DNA from: Candidatus Iainarchaeum sp.
Lineage (GTDB): Archaea > Iainarchaeota > Iainarchaeia > Iainarchaeales > DTGL01
Length of the DNA: 64,000 nucleotides
Reading direction: 5' to 3'
Assembly: GCA_026396995.1 (NCBI GenBank)
Contig: JAPLVS010000054.1
Coordinates: 24,052-88,051, forward strand
The notes under the pieces were generated by a model. It saw only the letters and a list, made by a program, of their open reading frames with translations, made no database searches and was not told where the DNA came from. The position numbers and the translations under genes are program-made. Below are positions 19,640 through 54,397 of the stretch, piece by piece; position 1 is the first letter of the stretch, and each line of letters begins with the position of its first letter.

Positions 19640-19918
19640 AAAGCGTGGGCACGCCCTGAAATCGATTTGGCCTGAAAGGCTGGAGTGACCCACTGCATTC
19701 CTCGCTTCCGTTTACCTCAAAGCATTTCGCTTAAAGGCCACCGTTGCTTTCTTCCGAACCTGGCGGGTTCACCCTTAGGCAAAACCTAAGAGGACAGAAG
19801 TTCCTTGTAGTGCAATGGCTCCGGCTTTCCAGGAAAAACCTTTCCCAAGGCTTCGGTCCCGGCGTGAAGCGGATTTCCGGCTACAGGGAACCGCTGCCTC
19901 CCCAACCTAGCCCACAAA
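19640..19918 (-). ncRNA. ffs: Signal recognition particle RNA (7S/SRP RNA)
   Basis: On the minus strand, GGUGAACCCGCCAGGUUCGGAAGAAAGCAACGGUGGCC matches SRP RNA helix 8 (GGAA tetraloop, AGCA). CACUCCAGCCU pairs with the 5' CCUGGAAAGCCGGAG to form helix 5. The terminal helix is GUGGGC/GCCCAC. A hairpin plus T8 run lies at the 3' end. Confidence 0.65.
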
Positions 19919-40325: not shown

Positions 40326-41942
40326 ATGTTTGACCTGTTAAAGGAAAAAATTGCAGCTTTTGCAAGTAAGCTCGGCAAAAAAGCAGAGGAAAAACCGGCA
40401 AAGCCTGCCCAGGAAACCCGGGAGGGCGGCAGGCGCGAGATAACTGATTATTACGAAAGGTCTCCGGCGCGCGCAGTCGAGGAAATGGTGCTTCCCGGCG
40501 CCAAGGAAAAAAAGGCCGGGGCAATAGCCGAACCGAAAAAAGCCCAGCCGGTTGGGATAGTTCCTGCCGGAGAAAAGCCCCGGGCTTTGGAAAAGCCTGA
40601 AAAAATGGGGGCGCTTTCAGAAAGCATTTCAAAGGTAAAAGAAAAGCTGGCCAGGGCAGAAGCCGTGGAAAAAGCCGCGCCAGAAAAACCGGCTGAAAAA
40701 AAGCCGGAAGAAGCCAAGGCCAAAAAGCCTGCGGAAAAGCCAAAGGAAGTTCTCCCGGAAAAACCCAAGCCGCCTGAAAAGCCGCCGGAAGAAGAATTCA
40801 GGCTTTCGAAAATCAGCGGCTTGTGGAAGGATGTTTTCAAGGCGCCTCCGAAAACCGTGCCGCCTGAAGAAAAATCCGGAATTCCAGCAGGGAAACCGGT
40901 TCAGCAGGAACTTCCGGAAATGCAGCCTGTTGCCAGGGAGCAAAGGGAATTTGAAAAGCCGCCAATTGTTTTTGAAAAGGAACCTGAAATAAAACCGCCT
41001 TTCAGGGGGCCTGCAAGCGCGCCAAAATTGCCTGAAACCGACAAAAGGGAACTGAAGGCGAAAGTCGGGGCAATCAAGACATTGAAGGGCGTTTTGCAGG
41101 GCTATGTGCAGTTGGGCGAAAAAGAAATCAACAGCATGCTTTTCGAGCTCGAAATGTCATTGCTTGAAGCGGATGTGAACCAGGAAACAGCGAGCGCCCT
41201 TGTCCAAAAAATAAAGGAACTGCTTGTGAATGAAAGGATTCCGCGCGGGAACGAGGTCAGCGGCTTCCTCAAGGGCAAAATCAAGGAAGCACTCACTGAG
41301 CTCACGGCCACAGAAAGAGTCAATCTGTTCGAATTGATTGAAAGGTCGAGAAAGCCTTTCAAAATCCTTTTCCTCGGCCCTAACGGCGCAGGCAAAACCA
41401 CAACCATCGCAAAGCTTTCCTTTGCACTGCAATTGACAGGCAAGACAGTCATTTGGGCTGCAGCCGACACCTTCCGCGCTGCTTCAATCGAACAGCTTGA
41501 AGAGCACGCGAAAAAACTGAAGATAAGGGTTGTAAAGCACAAATATGGTGCTGACCCTGCTGCAGTTGCATTTGATGCAGTGAAAGCGGCTGAAGCGAAC
41601 CACGTTGATGTTGTAATGGTTGATTCTGCAGGCAGGCAGGAAACAAACAAGAATTTGATAGAGGAACTGAAGAAAATCGAGCGCGTCCTGAAGCCTGATT
41701 TCAAGATTTTTATCGGTGAAGCGTTCGCAGGCAAGGGCTTATTGGAGCAGGCGAAGGCTTTCGATGAAGCGCTCGGAATCGACGGCTTCATCCTCACAAA
41801 AATCGACACAGACGCAAAAGGCGGCACAGTCCTTTCCCTATTATGCGAATTGAAAAAGCCGGTTCTCTTCATCGGCACAGGCCAGTCCTACGAAGACTTG
41901 GTTCCGTTCACGCCGCAGTACATTATCGACAGGATTGTTTGA
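40326..41942 (+). CDS. ftsY: SRP receptor FtsY with ~280-aa K/E/P-rich N-terminal extension
   Basis: NG domain with ILFLGPNGAGKTTTIAKL, DTFRAA, DSAGR and TKIDTDAKGG. PEKP-type repeats in the N-terminus. Confidence 0.9.
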   Translation: MFDLLKEKIAAFASKLGKKAEEKPAKPAQETREGGRREITDYYERSPARAVEEMVLPGAKEKKAGAIAEPKKAQPVGIVPAGEKPRALEKPEKMGALSESISKVKEKLARAEAVEKAAPEKPAEKKPEEAKAKKPAEKPKEVLPEKPKPPEKPPEEEFRLSKISGLWKDVFKAPPKTVPPEEKSGIPAGKPVQQELPEMQPVAREQREFEKPPIVFEKEPEIKPPFRGPASAPKLPETDKRELKAKVGAIKTLKGVLQGYVQLGEKEINSMLFELEMSLLEADVNQETASALVQKIKELLVNERIPRGNEVSGFLKGKIKEALTELTATERVNLFELIERSRKPFKILFLGPNGAGKTTTIAKLSFALQLTGKTVIWAAADTFRAASIEQLEEHAKKLKIRVVKHKYGADPAAVAFDAVKAAEANHVDVVMVDSAGRQETNKNLIEELKKIERVLKPDFKIFIGEAFAGKGLLEQAKAFDEALGIDGFILTKIDTDAKGGTVLSLLCELKKPVLFIGTGQSYEDLVPFTPQYIIDRIV

Positions 41943-48038: not shown

Positions 48039-48538
48039 ACTTTGCCCAAGCGTCAATTTCCGTAAATTTAATTTGCCGGCAAAGCTTCCCAAGGGCAAAG
48101 TATTTTTTATTGTTTGCAAGCATATAATCGGTTATGCCTCGGTTTGCCCGCGGGATTGTACGATCTGTTGCTGGTAGAATTTCCCAACGCAGGGAAACCA
48201 GGCGAGCGGCCAGGAGGAAAACCCTTGGCAGGGAACTTGGCATTGTCGGCCTGGACATCGGGCACCTTAATAGGACGGCTTCATTGCACGGCAGCATTGC
48301 CAGAATGCGGCGCCGGAAAGGCGAACCTAACCTCCAGTCCCTGGGAATGGAAGCCAGGGCGCGCAGAGCGGCAGTGCCTCTGGAAAAAAGATCCAGAAGG
48401 CTTAGGGCCCAGCTCGCCGGCCTTGGGGCAAAACCTTAGCAATCCTTCAACTTCCAAGCCCCACAACTGCCCGCAACCTGCTTGAAGCCCAATCTCCTTA
48501 TCGCAAGGTAATAAAACCTTTCAATGCTTATTTTTTGC

Positions 48539-49897
48539 ATGGCCTTGGGTGAAAAGTTAAGGGCGGCAATGGAGCGCCTGAAGAATGCCGCTTTTCTCGA
48601 TAAGGATGCGATAGCGGAAGCCGTCAAGGAAATCCAGCGCGCGCTCATTTCTTCGGATGTTGAAGTAAACCTTGTGTTCAATCTGAGCAGGGAGATAGAG
48701 AAAAAGGCATCCGAGGTTCCGCCAAAAGGCATTGACCGCAGGGAATTCATCATCAAGACCACTTACGATTTGCTCGCAGACTTAATCGGCGGCCAGCATG
48801 AAGCGCCGAAAGAACCGAAAAAAATCCTTTTGCTCGGCCTATTTGGGCAGGGCAAAACCACGACTGCCGGAAAACTGGCGGCATGGCATAAAAAGCGCGG
48901 AAGGCATGTTTCCCTAGTGTGCGCGGACGTGCACAGGCCTGCTTCTTTCGAGCAATTGCAGCAGGTTGCAGGGCAGGCTGGCGTTGAGTTTTACGGCATC
49001 AAGGCCGAAAAGAGCGCTGTTAAAATCGTGCAGAGCGCATTGCAGGAACTGAAGAAGCAGGATTTGGTTATTGTCGATTCTGCAGGCCGCTCAGGCCTGG
49101 ACGAAGCGCTCATAAAAGAAATAATAGATGTCAAGGCAGCATTCAACCCTGACCAAATCTGGCTTGTTTTGAGTGCGGACATAGGCCAATTGGCGAAGAG
49201 GCAGGCACAGGCTTTCCATGAAGCCGTCGGCGTTAATGGAATCATTCTTTCGAAAGCCGACAGCTCTTCCAAGGGCGGAGGCGCTCTCGCTGCCTGCGCT
49301 GAAACAAGGGCGCCTGTGTATTTTATCGGGACAGGTGAAAAGCTTTCAGACCTTGAAATATTCGATGCAAAGCGCTATCTTGGAAGGATAATGGGCTACG
49401 GCGACCTTGAAGCGCTTCTGGAAAAAGCGAAAGAGGCGGCAGAGGAAAAGGATTTCAAGCCAGAAGACATCCTGTCCGGAGATTTTAACCTCGATGTTTT
49501 CTACAAGCAATTAGAAGCCACAAAGAAAATGGGCCCGATTTCAAAGGTTGCCGAAATGATGGGCCTGAAAATGCAGTTGCCCAAAGAACAGCTTGAATTG
49601 GGCCAGGAAAAACTCGATTCTTACAAAATAATAATGGATTCCATGACCAAACAGGAAAAAAAGCACCCGGACATAATTAGCAGGGAGCGCATTGAAAGGA
49701 TTGCAAAGGGCAGCGGCCGCAGGCCAGAGGATGTCAGGGACTTGCTGAAGCAGTACAGGCAGCTTGAGAAAATGCTCGGCAAATTCAAGAAAATTGCAGG
49801 AAAAAAAGACCCAGAGAAAATGGACGAAAAGGACATCCAGAAAATGATGCAGAAATTCGGCGGCATGAGGAAAAAAAAGCGCCTGAAATTCAGGTAA
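48539..49897 (+). CDS. srp54: Signal recognition particle protein SRP54
   Basis: N domain, G domain (LLGLFGQGKTTTAGKLA, DVHRPAS, DSAGR, SKADSSSKGG), and a Met-rich M domain (MMGLKMQL...MMQKFGGM). Confidence 0.9.
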   Translation: MALGEKLRAAMERLKNAAFLDKDAIAEAVKEIQRALISSDVEVNLVFNLSREIEKKASEVPPKGIDRREFIIKTTYDLLADLIGGQHEAPKEPKKILLLGLFGQGKTTTAGKLAAWHKKRGRHVSLVCADVHRPASFEQLQQVAGQAGVEFYGIKAEKSAVKIVQSALQELKKQDLVIVDSAGRSGLDEALIKEIIDVKAAFNPDQIWLVLSADIGQLAKRQAQAFHEAVGVNGIILSKADSSSKGGGALAACAETRAPVYFIGTGEKLSDLEIFDAKRYLGRIMGYGDLEALLEKAKEAAEEKDFKPEDILSGDFNLDVFYKQLEATKKMGPISKVAEMMGLKMQLPKEQLELGQEKLDSYKIIMDSMTKQEKKHPDIISRERIERIAKGSGRRPEDVRDLLKQYRQLEKMLGKFKKIAGKKDPEKMDEKDIQKMMQKFGGMRKKKRLKFR

Positions 49898-49911: not shown

Positions 49912-50736
49912 ATGTTCGAATTGATCCGATACTTGATTGTTCTCACTGGCACAATTGTTTCTGCCTACACCGACATAAGAACAGGCCTTATCCTCGACAA
50001 AATCACTTACCCTATGATTGCCCTCGGATTGATTTTTTCAGCCGCAGATGTTTTTTTCGAGCATTCTTTCATGCAATTGGTTGTGCCTGTTTCGGTTTTT
50101 GCCTTCGGCTTCCTGCTTTACTATCTCGGAAAGTTGGGCGGCGGCGATGTTAAAATCTTCACAGGAATGGCTTTGCTCCTGCCTTTCTACCAGAACAGCC
50201 CCTTCATTCTGAACGTGCTGTTGATTGCAGCGCTTTCAAGCGTTTCCCTGATTTCCGTTTATTACCTTTTCAGGTATTTTTCGCTCAAAAAAAGGGAAAA
50301 AATCGACAGGAAGGAAATGCTGAAATCCCTTTTACTGGGAATTGCAATTCTTCTTTATCTGGTGGTGCTTTGCCAGCTCGGCTTCATGAAATTCTGGCAG
50401 GCGCTGGTCTTGTTCGTTCCATTGCTTTTGGGCTTGTGCGCGATGGCATTCCAGTCCGGAATCTACAAGGCGTTTTTCCTGAAATACGTTTCCCGAAAAG
50501 AACTGGAAGAGGACGAAATAATCGCAAGGGAATTCATTGAACCGGCAGCCCTCTCCGAAGCAGGCCTTTCCCTGAAAGGCATAGTCGATGAAAAGGCGGC
50601 TGAAAAGCTCGCAAAGGCAGGCGTTCATAAAATCCCTGTTTACAGGTCGCTGCCGCCCTTCGCCCCATTCCTGCTGCTTGGGGTAATAATTTCCTATTTC
50701 GTGCCGGATTTATTCCTGCTGATTTTTTTCCCCTGA
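49912..50736 (+). CDS. A24-family aspartic peptidase (prepilin/preflagellin peptidase, FlaK/PibD-like)
   Basis: The two catalytic Asp motifs sit in context: SAYTDIRTGLI and LGGGDVKIFTG. Multi-TM. Confidence 0.55.
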   Translation: MFELIRYLIVLTGTIVSAYTDIRTGLILDKITYPMIALGLIFSAADVFFEHSFMQLVVPVSVFAFGFLLYYLGKLGGGDVKIFTGMALLLPFYQNSPFILNVLLIAALSSVSLISVYYLFRYFSLKKREKIDRKEMLKSLLLGIAILLYLVVLCQLGFMKFWQALVLFVPLLLGLCAMAFQSGIYKAFFLKYVSRKELEEDEIIAREFIEPAALSEAGLSLKGIVDEKAAEKLAKAGVHKIPVYRSLPPFAPFLLLGVIISYFVPDLFLLIFFP

Positions 50737-51027
50737 AACGCTTGTTTTCCGCGTAAAACCGCACTTGTTGCAGGTTATTTTGAGAATGCTTCCTTCAATC
50801 CTTATTTTTGAATTCCTGCCTTCCTTCAAATAGGATTTGCATTTCTTGCAGTAGTTTTTTTTCAATTCCCATGGAATGCTTTCATTGCACCGTTTCCCTA
50901 TCTTGAGGGCCAGTTGCACATAGCAGTCGCTCCTTTCCGGGTGTTCCTTGAATTCTTTTCCGGCCAGTTCGAATAGCCTGCAAATCCTTTCCCTTGCGAT
51001 CTGCCCGATCACGTCTTTTTTTCCCAT
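50710..51027 (-). CDS. rnp4: RNase P protein component 4 (Rpp21/Rpr2)
   Basis: ERICRLFELAG...YVQLALKIGKRCNESIP then zinc ribbon CKKCKSYL...CNKCG. Confidence 0.7.
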   Translation of the reverse strand: MGKKDVIGQIARERICRLFELAGKEFKEHPERSDCYVQLALKIGKRCNESIPWELKKNYCKKCKSYLKEGRNSKIRIEGSILKITCNKCGFTRKTSVSGEKNQQE

Positions 51028-51530
51028 AATCCTTCCTTCATATAACGATAAAACATTTCTTTAAACCAGGGCGTGAACGCCTCGCGCTCCTTGAGCATGC
51101 CCCGTATTTCCTTTATTGAAAAAAACCTTCCGCCAAAGCTCTCTTCTATGTTCTCTGAAATCTTCCCGTCATAAGTGCATTTCCATAATTCCGAGAATTC
51201 GCAGTTTTTTTCAGGAAAACAGTTCTTTGCCTCGGCCACTTTCTCCACTTTTGCCCCAGTAATCCCCAACTCTTCTCTCAATCCCCTTAGTGCAGCCTGC
51301 TCGAAGCTCTCTCCAGGCTTCAGGTGCTCGCCCATATCCTCCCAGTGTTCCGGATAAAATTCCTTTTCCTGCGCCCTCTTCTTCAGGAAAATTCCCCCAC
51401 TGGAATTGAAAACCCAAACGTGCGCGCCCTTGTGCCACTCGCCATTATTATGTAGAACACTCCTCGGCGCCCTTCCTTTGAAAGCGCCGTAGCCTGAAAA
51501 AAATTCCAGCTGCTCTTCCCCTTGTTCCAT
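51009..51530 (-). CDS. NUDIX hydrolase
   Basis: Nudix box GEHLKPGESFEQAALRGLREELGI (GX5EX7REUXEEXGU). Confidence 0.75.
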   Translation of the reverse strand: MEQGEEQLEFFSGYGAFKGRAPRSVLHNNGEWHKGAHVWVFNSSGGIFLKKRAQEKEFYPEHWEDMGEHLKPGESFEQAALRGLREELGITGAKVEKVAEAKNCFPEKNCEFSELWKCTYDGKISENIEESFGGRFFSIKEIRGMLKEREAFTPWFKEMFYRYMKEGLWEKKT

Positions 51531-51539
51531 ATTTCTCAT

Positions 51540-52004
51540 TCACAGAATTTTCCTGAGGTATTCCATGCCAGATTTTTTGAACCCGATTTTTTGGTAAAAT
51601 TTGAATGCCTTTGATTTGCGGTGCGAGAGCAATGTCAGCGCCTTGAACCCCTTTTTCTTCAGATCCTTTTCCAGCAATGCTAGCGCCTTTCGGCCTATGC
51701 CTTTTCCCTGCAGGCCTTCGGCCACAGCGAATTCTTCCACGAAAAACCCGTTTCCTTCGGGCTCGGAGTAGAATTCCGAGCCAAAGATTATCCCTGTCCT
51801 TTTCCCGCCCATTTCTATTACATAAATCGCGCTTTTCGGGTGCCTTGCCCACAAGCGCACCGCCCGCATCGCTTTTGCAGGAGTCCATTTTTCATTATAG
51901 GGCGCCTTAGAGAACTCTTTCCTGAGCAGTTCAGCGCAAAAGCCCAAATCGCTTTCCTTTGCCGGCCGAAGGCCGACCTTGGATTGCTTAAAATCAGCTT
52001 TCAT
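51540..52004 (-). CDS. GNAT-family N-acetyltransferase
   Basis: Motif A LQGKGIGRKALALLE. 154 aa. Confidence 0.8.
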   Translation of the reverse strand: MKADFKQSKVGLRPAKESDLGFCAELLRKEFSKAPYNEKWTPAKAMRAVRLWARHPKSAIYVIEMGGKRTGIIFGSEFYSEPEGNGFFVEEFAVAEGLQGKGIGRKALALLEKDLKKKGFKALTLLSHRKSKAFKFYQKIGFKKSGMEYLRKIL

Positions 52005-52008
52005 TGAG

Positions 52009-52080
52009 TGCGGCTGCTGGGATTCGAACCCAGGACAAGAGCTTGGAGGGCTCCGATGATGACCACTTCACCACAGCCGC
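52009..52080 (-). tRNA. tRNA-Gly (anticodon TCC); unusual C at position 33
   Basis: Manual fold gives acceptor GCGGCUG/CAGCCGC with discriminator A, anticodon arm GGAGC-CCTCCAA-GCTCT, and T-arm CTGGG-TTCGAAT-CCCAG. Confidence 0.75.
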
Positions 52081-52118: not shown

Positions 52119-52916
52119 TTAATGGTTTTCTTTGCGCTGTTTTGCCCTGCCGGCCCTTATGTCTTTTGGCTGTATTTCACCGCCGGCAAGGGCTTCAGGG
52201 CTGTAGAATTTTTCAGGCAATGCCATTTTTGGGCCGTCCGGCATGAACCTGGCGGATTTCGGGCCTTCAGTTCGAATCCAGCAATGCTCTGCCTTGTCGA
52301 ACCTGTACCTTTCCCTGAAAATGTTTATCGGAATTCCCGAGCGCCAGTATTTCCTTGCTTTTTCAGCCACGTGCCCGGATGCCTTGATTTTTTCCGGGCT
52401 TTCGCTTGGCGGGAACCTGTACAATGAACCAACGTGGATGTGGTCGAAAACATACGTTTTTGTCGCATCAGCCCTTGCCCTGACAGTCAGCCCAAGCTGA
52501 TGCGGGCTCTTCGGGAGGACAAGGCTTTTTTCAAGCCTGAAAGAAGCCCAGTCAGGGTGAAAGTAAGGCGATGCCTGCCTTGAAATTCCAGTGGCTAGAA
52601 TATGCTCCGGCCTGTTGTTGTCAAAGGCGATGTCAATCGCTTCGGCATGAGGGTGTTCCTGGTATTGTTTGCGCCGCATTTCCGCAGCCGAAAAGCCGTT
52701 TCTTGCAATCGCGATTCCGCTTTCGGGTTTTGGGTCGCTTGTTCCGTGAATCAAAAAAGCAGTGTCCCTTCTCCTTACAATCTCTTCGGCTTCAGCAACT
52801 GAAAGCCCGGTTTCCTGTGCAATCCGCTGGATTTCTTCAGGCGAATGCGGTTCCTTTTTCTTCCGCATTTTCACAGCTTTCCTTATCTGCCCAAAGCGGT
52901 TTTTCGGCACAGGCAT
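52119..52916 (-). CDS. Hypothetical protein, paralog family member 1 (tandem with 52973-53683)
   Basis: Shares RIRQIRKAV, SPEEI..IA..TGLS.AEA.EI, HI.A.GISR, ATRAR, YWR with its neighbour. Function not recognised. Confidence 0.45.
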   Translation of the reverse strand: MPVPKNRFGQIRKAVKMRKKKEPHSPEEIQRIAQETGLSVAEAEEIVRRRDTAFLIHGTSDPKPESGIAIARNGFSAAEMRRKQYQEHPHAEAIDIAFDNNRPEHILATGISRQASPYFHPDWASFRLEKSLVLPKSPHQLGLTVRARADATKTYVFDHIHVGSLYRFPPSESPEKIKASGHVAEKARKYWRSGIPINIFRERYRFDKAEHCWIRTEGPKSARFMPDGPKMALPEKFYSPEALAGGEIQPKDIRAGRAKQRKENH

Positions 52917-52972
52917 ATGTTATTCTTTCCCCCAAGTGATTATATTCTTTCCAGGCTTGTTTTATGTTTTTC

Positions 52973-53683
52973 CTAATCGTCCCTGGCCAGCCTGTAAGTT
53001 GTTTTTGAAGCCCTTGTTTTCCCTGGCTCTTCGCTTGTAAGGATTTCAGGCATCAGGAATATTAAGGGCAGGCCTTTTTTCATATCGGCCTTGTCTTTCA
53101 GCCACCATGCCCCTTCCTTCGGGTAATATTTTTTCAGGAATTCATCCAGCCTTATTGCCTTTCTCCAATAGTCTACTGCAACCTTTTCGATTTCCGCACC
53201 GCACTTTTGCAGCCTCAAAGCCAGCTCGACATCATGCATATCCGCCACAATTGCTTTCTTCGTGTTTATTCTTGCCCTTGTCGCCCTAAGGTCGCCCTTC
53301 GGGTGCGATTCATACCGGTTGATTGCCCACAGGTTGCCGGGCCAGAAAAAATACGCGTTTTTCCTTGAAATGCCCAATGCCCTTATATGATCCGGAATCA
53401 CTTCATCAAAGGCTTTGTTTACTGGCCCAAGGCGCCTTTCCTCATAACGGTTGCCGCGCTTAAAGCCTTCCTCCTCGATTTGCCCAGCACGTTCTTTAAA
53501 TCCAAAGCGGAGCGCAAAAACCTTGTCTTTCCTTTCGATTATTTCCCTTGCTTCAGCTTCGCTCAACCCTGTTTTCCCGGCGATCCTGCCAGCCATCTCT
53601 TCCGGTGCGCCCTGTGTGTTTTCACGGATTTCCACAGCTCTCCTTATTTGGCGGATTCGGGTCGCCGGAATCCTTGCAGGCAT
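52973..53683 (-). CDS. Hypothetical protein, paralog family member 2
   Basis: See 52119-52916. N-terminus MPARIPATRIRQIRRAVEIRE. Confidence 0.45.
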   Translation of the reverse strand: MPARIPATRIRQIRRAVEIRENTQGAPEEMAGRIAGKTGLSEAEAREIIERKDKVFALRFGFKERAGQIEEEGFKRGNRYEERRLGPVNKAFDEVIPDHIRALGISRKNAYFFWPGNLWAINRYESHPKGDLRATRARINTKKAIVADMHDVELALRLQKCGAEIEKVAVDYWRKAIRLDEFLKKYYPKEGAWWLKDKADMKKGLPLIFLMPEILTSEEPGKTRASKTTYRLARDD

Positions 53684-53779
53684 ACACTACTTTTTTTCCC
53701 GAAGTGGTTATTATTCTTTCCAGAAAGCGCACGTTTTCTTTTTATTCTTTTTCGTCCTGCTCCTTACCGAGGGGATTTT

Positions 53780-54397
53780 ATGGTTGGGAAATTTATTGTT
53801 TTCGAAGGCACCGATGGCAGCGGGAAAGGCACAATGCTTGCCAAGACCGCGGAATGGCTTTTCAATTCAAGCATCGGCCACGACAAGATTGTTTTGACCA
53901 GGGAACCGACTTTTTCAGGGCCTGGCTCCCAGATAAGGAAGGCATTGAAATCCGACAAGGAACCGATGACCAAGGCAAAGCAATTGCTCTCGCTTTATTT
54001 CGAGGACCGCAAGGAACACATAGACAAGCTCATAAAGCCTGCATTGCAACTGGGTTCGATTGTGCTCTGCGACCGCTACAAGTACAGCACCATCTGCTAC
54101 CAGCAGGCGCAGGGCATTCCTGTGGAAAGCATTGTCGCAATGCACAAGCGCTTGCTCGTGCCGGACCTTGTCCTTGTTCTCGATGTCGACCCGAAGGTTG
54201 CAATGAAGAGGATAAGGGCGAGCAGGTCGAGCATTGAAAAGTTCGAAAAGGATTTTTTCCTCGGGGAAATCAGGCAGAACTACCTGAACCTGAAAAAAGC
54301 GCTTCCTGACGAGCCGATAAAGTTCATCGATGCCAATGCCGAGCCGGATGAAGTTTTCCTCAAGGTGAAAAAGGAAATCGCAAAGGTCCTGAAATAA
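53780..54397 (+). CDS. tmk: Thymidylate kinase
   Basis: FIVFEGTDGSGKGT P-loop, DRYKYSTICYQQAQG (DRY...Y.Q), and a lid region. 205 aa. Confidence 0.8.
   Translation: MVGKFIVFEGTDGSGKGTMLAKTAEWLFNSSIGHDKIVLTREPTFSGPGSQIRKALKSDKEPMTKAKQLLSLYFEDRKEHIDKLIKPALQLGSIVLCDRYKYSTICYQQAQGIPVESIVAMHKRLLVPDLVLVLDVDPKVAMKRIRASRSSIEKFEKDFFLGEIRQNYLNLKKALPDEPIKFIDANAEPDEVFLKVKKEIAKVLK

Follow-up and report, generated by a model that had tools for sequence, protein, structure and literature searches.

A tandem gene pair of predicted ADP-ribosyltransferase fold in Candidatus Iainarchaeum and its relatives in DPANN and CPR genomes

Introduction

The ADP-ribosyltransferases (ARTs) have two established signatures, an H-X-[S/T] motif that contacts the NAD+ ribose and a glutamate that is the key catalytic residue (PMC8120803). 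In the present analysis, a 64,000-nucleotide stretch of Candidatus Iainarchaeum sp. (contig JAPLVS010000054.1, positions 24,052 to 88,051; hereafter the window) was studied for a tandem pair of minus-strand genes, A and B, whose proteins very probably belong to an ART-fold family of the H-Y-E class.

The closest known systems include the BC2332-like proteins (PDB 2aua; SCOP d.166.1.6, ADP-ribosylation superfamily) and DarT (DUF4433), the single-stranded DNA thymidine ADP-ribosyltransferase of the DarTG toxin-antitoxin. The binary actin-ADP-ribosylating toxins (VIP2, iota Ia and C2I) contain duplicated ART domains, one active and the other a degenerate adaptor. The RNA 2'-phosphotransferase Tpt1/KptA belongs to the H-H-h class without the motif III glutamate (PMC8120803). 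Among the modifying enzymes of polyvalent proteins, ARTs are the most frequent (PMC9503650). The polyvalent proteins described so far are from phages and conjugative elements.

Results

ART fold and catalytic signature

Gene A (52119..52916, minus strand) was found to encode a protein of 265 aa (NCBI NT067_04960) and gene B (52973..53683, minus strand) a protein of 236 aa (NCBI NT067_04965), each at the coordinates given beforehand and from an ATG start, and each with a small three-helix N-terminal unit packed onto a predicted ART-fold domain. The original prediction had recognised no known domain in the pair. This holds at the level of sequence, as direct scans of A and B against Pfam, NCBIfam, PHROGs, PADLOC and PDB sequences gave no significant match, but not at the level of structure, where the C-terminal ~200 aa correspond to the ART fold, the core of which is a split beta-sheet of some six strands interspersed with helices. 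In A, the predicted catalytic domain extends over residues 52-256 (52149..52763) and contains a helical/beta insert with an invariant YW between core strands 4 and 5.

Motif I of A was found to be H57-G58-T59 (H-x-T; 52740..52748), present at the end of strand beta-1 with its codon positions checked, whereas B contained R59-F60-G61 at the same position (53501..53509), as seen from the alignment columns and a codon check. The motif II region of A (S112-R113...Y118, in GISRQASPYF; 52563..52583) carried an aromatic residue on strand beta-2, which was Y in A, F in B and either Y or F in all 48 members of the family alignment. Motif III of A, P240-E241 (52194..52199), was found to contain the candidate catalytic glutamate at the start of a C-terminal core strand, with E241 in A and E213 in B. 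In the structural model, strand 52-58 ends at H57, strand 118-120 holds Y118 and strand 240-244 begins with P240-E241, so that the modelled strand order of H57, Y118 and E241 is the order of the ART motifs I, II and III. An AF2 model built from only five sequences was poor (pLDDT 55) and was not used.

Among the PDB sequences, a profile of all members matched DarT1 of E. coli (E=6.4e-4) and several entries of Tpt1/KptA (E=2e-3), and eight of the nine sequences listed at E<=10 were ARTs. Separate CPR-only (candidate phyla radiation) and archaeal-only profiles also matched DarT1 and Tpt1 at motif I, where the H-x-T...I..GL of the family was found to align residue for residue with FHFT...SIL..GL of DarT1 and YHGT...SILkeGLkP of Tpt1. 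Foldseek against BFVD gave no significant match.

The family and its conserved residues

A word-indexed protein search yielded three further close relatives beyond A and B. The resulting five-sequence profile was searched with HMMER against 1.84 billion cluster representatives and recovered 54 of them at E<=1e-3, most being 190-280 aa in length and matching over the C-terminal ~170 residues, and two being giants of 7,011 and 5,491 aa. The word-indexed search repeated with a 48-sequence profile, among 8,000 candidates, added nothing.

The conservation counts refer to the alignment of 48 members (A2), with positions in A numbering. The family was found to contain a conserved V-Y-H-x-T ... I..eG-L-x-P segment with H57 (41/48), T or S at position 59 (35/48) and G74 (46/48), followed by the presence of a conserved D..R-P..I...G-I-S-R...[VI]-[YF]-A-[HY]-P segment with D99 (44/48), P103 (47/48), S112 (40/48), R113 (46/48) and the aromatic residue at 118 (F in 27, Y in 21). 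These were followed by V-D-P....V.D with V156 (48/48), by Y-W.....L..F...Y with Y190 (46/48) and W191 (48/48), and by L-P.....P-E-V-L-I-P..I....I, in which P240 and E241 were each conserved in 48/48. Of the segments that had been listed from the window, GISR, proposed as part of a possible active site, and YW are thus conserved throughout the family, whereas ATRAR, proposed likewise, is conserved only in the closest relatives; the two most diagnostic features, namely the histidine of H-x-T (R in B) and the invariant P-E near the C-terminus, had not been picked out.

No match above a curated threshold to any catalogued ART family in Pfam or NCBIfam was found for A or B. Literature searches on DUF7002, DUF3841 and DUF6996, and on ARTs in DPANN or Saccharibacteria, gave no description of the family, which counts as uncatalogued when judged by the standard applied to novel ART families (PMC12522546). 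What is new is the sequence family and its architecture, the ART superfamily being already well known.

Paralogy, selection and the divergence of B

The two protein sequences were identical to those annotated as hypothetical proteins in a Candidatus Diapherotrites metagenome-assembled genome (MAG), and no signal peptide was found in A or B. The two proteins had been taken as paralogs, and this was borne out by a whole-length alignment (BLASTP 31% identity, E=3e-22) and by the shuffling control that had been suggested for it, with a Smith-Waterman score of 214 for A against B compared with 34.5 +/- 5.6 for 500 shuffles (z=32). Every shared segment that had been listed was also recovered, among them MP..P..R..QIR(K/R)AV, the IA..TGLS.AEA.EI helix pair, GISR and YWR.

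The tandem pair and its neighbours were found to be kept in the order Tmk, B, A, GNAT, Nudix and Rpr2 in a second MAG, of Candidatus Iainarchaeum (L001/L013). Between the window and L001, 34-41% of synonymous sites differed (dS ~0.5-0.6), and the ratio of nonsynonymous to synonymous substitution rates (dN/dS) was 0.15 for A and 0.36 for B. These values indicate that both are functional genes under purifying selection, B being more weakly constrained.

In B and its orthologs, R-F-G was found to replace H-x-T, while G-I-S-R, F112, Y-W and P212-E213 were kept. A more distant Diapherotrites-like genome (L005) contained a single copy beside Tmk, which has the histidine and is 44% identical to A and 28% identical to B. 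B itself was found only in the window lineage, L001 and one JGI contig. Because the single copy of L005 is nearer to A and carries the histidine, A is taken to be of the ancestral type and B to be a derived duplicate confined to the window/L001 lineage. A lineage-specific expansion had been proposed; it applies to the duplication, with two copies in the window and L001 and one H-type copy in L005, but not to the family itself, with its 54 cluster representatives. The loss of the histidine was also found elsewhere: the middle of the three domains in the giant protein P0011 contains I in its place (FVYINKE), and an Arg at the His position has arisen independently in P0035. Judged from these sequences, the pairing of an intact with a degenerate copy recurs independently in the window pair and in P0011. 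The R59 of B may still support the binding of NAD+, like the Arg of R-S-E ARTs, or B may be a pseudo-enzyme.

N-terminal three-helix unit

In A, the N-terminal unit comprises residues 1-51 (52764..52916, minus strand). Its helix 1 is basic (FGQIRKAVKMRKKK), and a helix-turn-helix-like (HTH-like) pair comes after it (EEIQRIAQETGLSVAEAEEIVRRR). The basic N-termini (MP..R..QIRKAV) had been regarded as leaders. The unit was found to be conserved in the DPANN members and to be kept internally in the 7,011-aa protein of Altiarchaeota, where the module is present at ~1631-1864 (FGKLRKAVKL...ILELSKEVNLPKGAFFEVVRRKD); since the unit is retained when the module is internal, the basic segment is helix 1 of a conserved three-helix unit and not a terminal leader or targeting peptide.

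Although the unit is HTH-like in look, its helix 3 is acidic and no HTH Pfam model matched A or B. A weak NCBIfam HspR match (E=0.09) was confined to the HTH-like hairpin, and a similar hairpin was found ahead of each domain copy in the secreted giant P0011. In view of the acidic helix, the lack of a matching HTH model and the hairpins of the secreted giant, DNA binding by the unit is only a possibility. A match of the unit to the 'CAP repeat' of 8vd6 (E=8.5e-4) was discarded, as 8vd6 is a de novo designed protein (PMC12339374).

Upstream element

The A-B spacer (52917..52972, minus strand) was found to contain two exact GGAAAGAATA direct repeats at 52921-52930 and 52943-52952, which are 22 bp apart from start to start and form a candidate promoter, 5'-signal or operator. 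A third exact copy was found at 53712-53721 in the divergent intergenic region between B and Tmk (53684..53782, minus strand), so that the three sites of this 10-mer in the 64 kb are all directly upstream of A or B. The ~40 nt ahead of each ATG were ~85% identical between A and B, compared with 31% for the proteins. The A-B spacer was identical in the window and L001 save one indel, in spite of the 34-41% difference at synonymous sites, and a recognisable version of the element was found to precede the single-copy gene in L005. This shows that A and B each have conserved expression signals of their own. The element could be an operator, but the more cautious interpretation as a general promoter or leader motif is preferred because one-mismatch variants of the 10-mer were found upstream of unrelated genes.

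Distribution and giant relatives

All members with a named source were found to be from DPANN (Diapherotrites/Iainarchaeum and Altiarchaeota) or from the CPR (Saccharibacteria, Saccharimonadales and 'Patescibacteria group'), and the loci without a source name had archaeal or Saccharibacteria-like neighbours. Searches of GenBank phages, BFVD and IMG/VR yielded no relatives. In the search for further loci, GTDB genomes yielded only the L001 genome and JGI metagenomes yielded none.

The protein P0011 (L008 6001-22476, plus strand; 5,491 aa) was found to contain a signal-peptide-like N-terminus, CARDB and NHL propellers, together with three tandem ART-like domains at 818-1009, 1120-1272 (the copy that has lost the histidine) and 1350-1568. 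It divergently adjoins two ADP-ribosylglycohydrolase (ARH) genes (PF03747, E=1e-75 and 1e-34), and this locus is the sole context that links the domain directly to ADP-ribosylation. Its surroundings also include a 348-aa protein without a Pfam match, and L008 3131-4839 (minus strand) was noted with the locus.

The protein P0007 (L007 35-21070, plus strand; 7,011 aa; Altiarchaeota) is annotated only as 'GNAT'. It was found to combine, in the style of a polyvalent protein, the complete three-helix and ART module with two GNAT domains, a SAM methyltransferase, two Tiki/ChaN-like domains and numerous HTH domains. A second possible ART-like motif I was noted in it at ~1944-1991 (IHVGVYTLERFEDIVTRGLDP).

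No macrodomain was called beside the members in 12 contexts examined, the window itself not having been searched for macrodomains. A tblastn search with the ARH proteins of L008 gave no ARH homologs in the window or at any locus. An ARH or macrodomain neighbour together with a secretion signal, the layout of an ART toxin with ARH immunity, was found only for the distant P0011 and not for the window pair.

The CPR-type protein P0013 was found in a tight same-strand array (L009 2264-4356, L010 and L011), followed downstream by several small open reading frames and an ASCH-domain gene. The layout is mobile-element- or phage-like, yet no viral relatives were found. Leucyl-tRNA-synthetase-like genes with a NUDIX domain inserted between the catalytic and anticodon-binding parts were observed at L018 1-656, L019 1-656 and L020 7340-10159, in Saccharibacteria-type contigs.

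Comparison with the known ART systems

For the BC2332-like proteins, no homology to the family was found at the level of sequence. The match of the family to DarT covers motif I only (~40 residues), without full-length similarity, and no DarG macrodomain antitoxin was found beside any member examined. Unlike DarT, the gene of the present family is a single copy in housekeeping synteny, with an extra N-terminal unit and a large insert.

In contrast to Tpt1/KptA, the family has an invariant glutamate. PF01885 matched only 1 of the 48 members (E=0.054), and the Arg-His-Arg-Arg tetrad of Tpt1 was not identified. To our knowledge, archaeal tRNA splicing generates no 2'-phosphate.

A likeness to the polyvalent and giant effector ARTs was found in the complete module of P0007 and the three copies of P0011; the present genes differ in being chromosomal genes of DPANN, those of the window being small and standalone. 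The binary toxins resemble the family in the duplication of the ART unit and the loss of NAD+-binding residues in one copy (H-x-T to R-F-G in B, H to I in the middle domain of P0011), but they are of the R-S-E class and fused in one polypeptide, whereas A and B are two separate H-Y-E genes and their partnership is only proposed.

Surrounding genes

The thymidylate kinase gene tmk (53783..54397, plus strand; PF02223, E=2.5e-37) was found as the divergent neighbour of the family gene in three genomes (window, L001 and L005). Downstream of A, a tRNA-Gly(UCC) (52008-52080), a GNAT gene (51540-52004), a Nudix gene (51009-51539) and the RNase P Rpr2 gene (50710-51027) were found on the minus strand. 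This same-strand array (50710-52080) is compact, with GNAT and Nudix abutting (51539/51540) and Nudix and Rpr2 overlapping by 19 nt, and the array was conserved in the same order in L001. The window Nudix was considered as a specific ADP-ribose pyrophosphatase and rejected, its best NCBIfam similarities being to IPP isomerase and MutT types, all sub-threshold.

The pair had been described as the third tandem minus-strand paralog pair within ~12 kb, which is true, the other two being 41988-42719/42719-44032 (E=9e-66) and 44072-44860/44989-45693 (E=5e-16). The former comprises tandem thymidylate-kinase-like P-loop proteins that are 45% identical and both start with MPP.KR.F.RKRPTD; the upstream member has an extra C-terminal extension of ~190 aa without a Pfam match, and the bona fide Tmk (53783-54397) is 10 kb away. 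The latter was found to comprise paralogs with 35% identity over 150 aa and the common motif R-G-x-G-L-x..FASRA, both with long basic N-terminal regions and with a sub-threshold GNAT (Acetyltransf_CG) match only.

Strongly basic proteins with an isoelectric point (pI) of 9-10.8 were found to predominate in the region (e.g. 40326-63476); the paralog pairs therefore share their basic N-termini and high pI with the proteome of the region and are not peculiar in this. For the same reason the basic pI of the DPANN subfamily was rejected as a sign of nucleic-acid binding, most window proteins having a pI of at least 9. The window was also found to encode the RNA of the signal recognition particle (SRP; 19643-19917, minus strand), FtsY (40326-41942, plus strand) and SRP54 (48524-49897, plus strand). 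The SRP RNA is of archaeal type, which marks the window as archaeal. In the archaeal contig L012, too, a gene for FtsY directly adjoins a family member.

Discussion

Proposed mechanism

In the preferred reading, to which we assign a probability of roughly 0.55, A works as an NAD+-dependent enzyme of ART fold and B is a diverged duplicate with altered or lost contacts to the NAD+ ribose. The paralogy, the purifying selection, the conservation of the motifs, the distribution of the named members and the gene contexts are shown and the fold is well supported, whereas the use of NAD+, the chemistry of the transfer, the kind of acceptor and what B does are inferred. A, the ancestral copy, is probably catalytic. 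NAD+ would bind to A with its ribose hydroxyls contacted by H57 and T59, the nicotinamide would stack on Y118, and E241 would promote the release of nicotinamide and the transfer of ADP-ribose to an acceptor. The acceptor would most likely be a macromolecule, either protein or nucleic acid, a leaning that is based on the giant-protein and ARH contexts and on the DarT/Tpt1-like motif I. B would have arisen by a lineage-specific tandem duplication that took in the promoter region, and it evolves faster; most likely its NAD+ binding is altered or lost, and it may act as a partner or regulator or may use another substrate.

Several observations weigh against this assignment. Foldseek against PDB ranked BC2332 first, at a non-significant E=0.095, and no sequence library assigns A or B to any ART family. 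Among the 48 relatives, Pfam gave only sub-threshold matches in single members, two to DUF7002 (E=0.0045), one to PTS_2-RNA (E=0.054) and one to DUF3841 (E=0.065). No macrodomain, ARH, other eraser or immunity gene was found adjoining the window pair or any standalone member examined, and the ARH linkage comes from a single locus (L008). The immediate neighbours of the standalone members are mostly housekeeping and nucleotide-metabolism genes, which would fit a small-molecule role about as well.

Alternative explanations

An ART fold that serves small-molecule NAD+ or nucleotide metabolism, as an NAD+ glycohydrolase or by ADP-ribosyl or phosphoribosyl transfer to a metabolite, is unlikely, though the most probable of the alternatives. 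Such an enzyme would serve nucleotide or ribose salvage in organisms unable to make nucleotides de novo. The CPR and DPANN groups depend on salvage, and every named source of the family was CPR or DPANN. The neighbours of the family genes were found to include thymidylate kinase (window, L001 and L005), Ham1/ITPase 1 nt upstream (L020/L021), the MazG-like gene 9 nt upstream of P0013 (L009-L011), 6PGL and 6PGD (L006), flavokinase and PRPP synthetase (L014-L016), an HD-domain protein (L002/L003) and a LigT 2H phosphoesterase (L012), together with Nudix genes within 1-4 kb at several loci; the standalone members are without an immunity or eraser gene, as expected of a non-toxic metabolic enzyme. 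However, these neighbour categories were grouped post hoc, small genomes are dense in housekeeping genes, several of the adjacencies are divergent or convergent and not operonic, and the window Nudix is not of the ADP-ribose pyrophosphatase type. The presence of the domain in a giant surface protein with a signal peptide beside ARH genes, and in a polyvalent giant, points to macromolecular or conflict targets. The nucleotide-related neighbours are a weak, post-hoc signal that keeps the small-molecule explanation alive.

It is doubtful that the proteins serve as effectors or toxins in conflict between organisms. On this view they would be ART enzymes that are delivered to the host cell of the episymbionts or act on it, and B, itself inactive, would serve A as adaptor or inhibitor, much like the dead domain of the duplicated ART in the binary toxins. 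The chemistry of this explanation overlaps that of the preferred one, and the secreted giant with its ARH neighbours would suit it. The window proteins, however, lack a signal peptide, have neither secretion-associated nor immunity genes beside them, and lie in a syntenic housekeeping region that is conserved over three genomes. Both genes are under ordinary purifying selection, whereas toxins typically diversify rapidly. The occurrence of single H-type copies without a partner (L004, L005 and CPR loci) suggests that A is not obviously self-toxic, and the searches of phage and viral collections yielded no relatives.

A role as NAD+- or ADP-ribose-responsive regulators or bifunctional enzyme-repressors of the BirA/NadR type is very improbable. 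The N-terminal HTH would then bind the GGAAAGAATA repeats upstream of its own genes, and the ART-like domain would be mainly a ligand sensor. The placement of the exact repeats is compatible with this, but the putative recognition helix is acidic (SVAEAEEIV) and is matched by no HTH Pfam model, and the hairpin before each P0011 copy, part of which is present in HTH-less CPR members, suggests a structural cap and not a DNA reader. The one-mismatch variants of the 10-mer upstream of unrelated genes may mark a general promoter or ribosome-binding-site signal, and the invariant glutamate favours catalysis over sensing alone.

That the ART assignment is a false positive, with an unrelated alpha/beta fold and a coincidental H/aromatic/E pattern, is the least probable of all.

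Meaning for the family and its hosts

On a broader and rather improbable interpretation, the family is an ART family common to the DPANN and CPR/Patescibacteria episymbionts, occurring both as standalone proteins and as modules of giant surface or polyvalent proteins, which ADP-ribosylates host macromolecules, with A as the catalytic subunit and B as a pseudo-enzyme partner. If this were true, the two ultra-small radiations would share a candidate enzymatic effector of host manipulation, the first of its kind. The CPR and DPANN have tiny genomes in which few non-essential genes are retained, and their host-interaction machinery is largely obscure. ADP-ribosylation plays a major part in conflict between organisms and in regulation, and the study of new ART families regularly brings new targets to light, among them DNA bases, RNA ends and ubiquitin.

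The significance of the finding is judged to be moderate, being raised by the distribution over DPANN and CPR, the embedding in giant proteins and the pair of an intact and a degenerate copy, and limited by the lack of a recurrent functional partner. If the activity proves ordinary or absent, an annotation (ART-fold, BC2332-like) is still gained for ~50 orphan protein clusters of a family that is invisible to Pfam, NCBIfam and Foldseek. For two 'hypothetical' genes of Candidatus Iainarchaeum there is now a concrete biochemical hypothesis, that of an NAD+-dependent transfer in which H57 and E241 would be the key residues, and A and B offer a natural active/degenerate pair for the study of pseudo-enzyme evolution.

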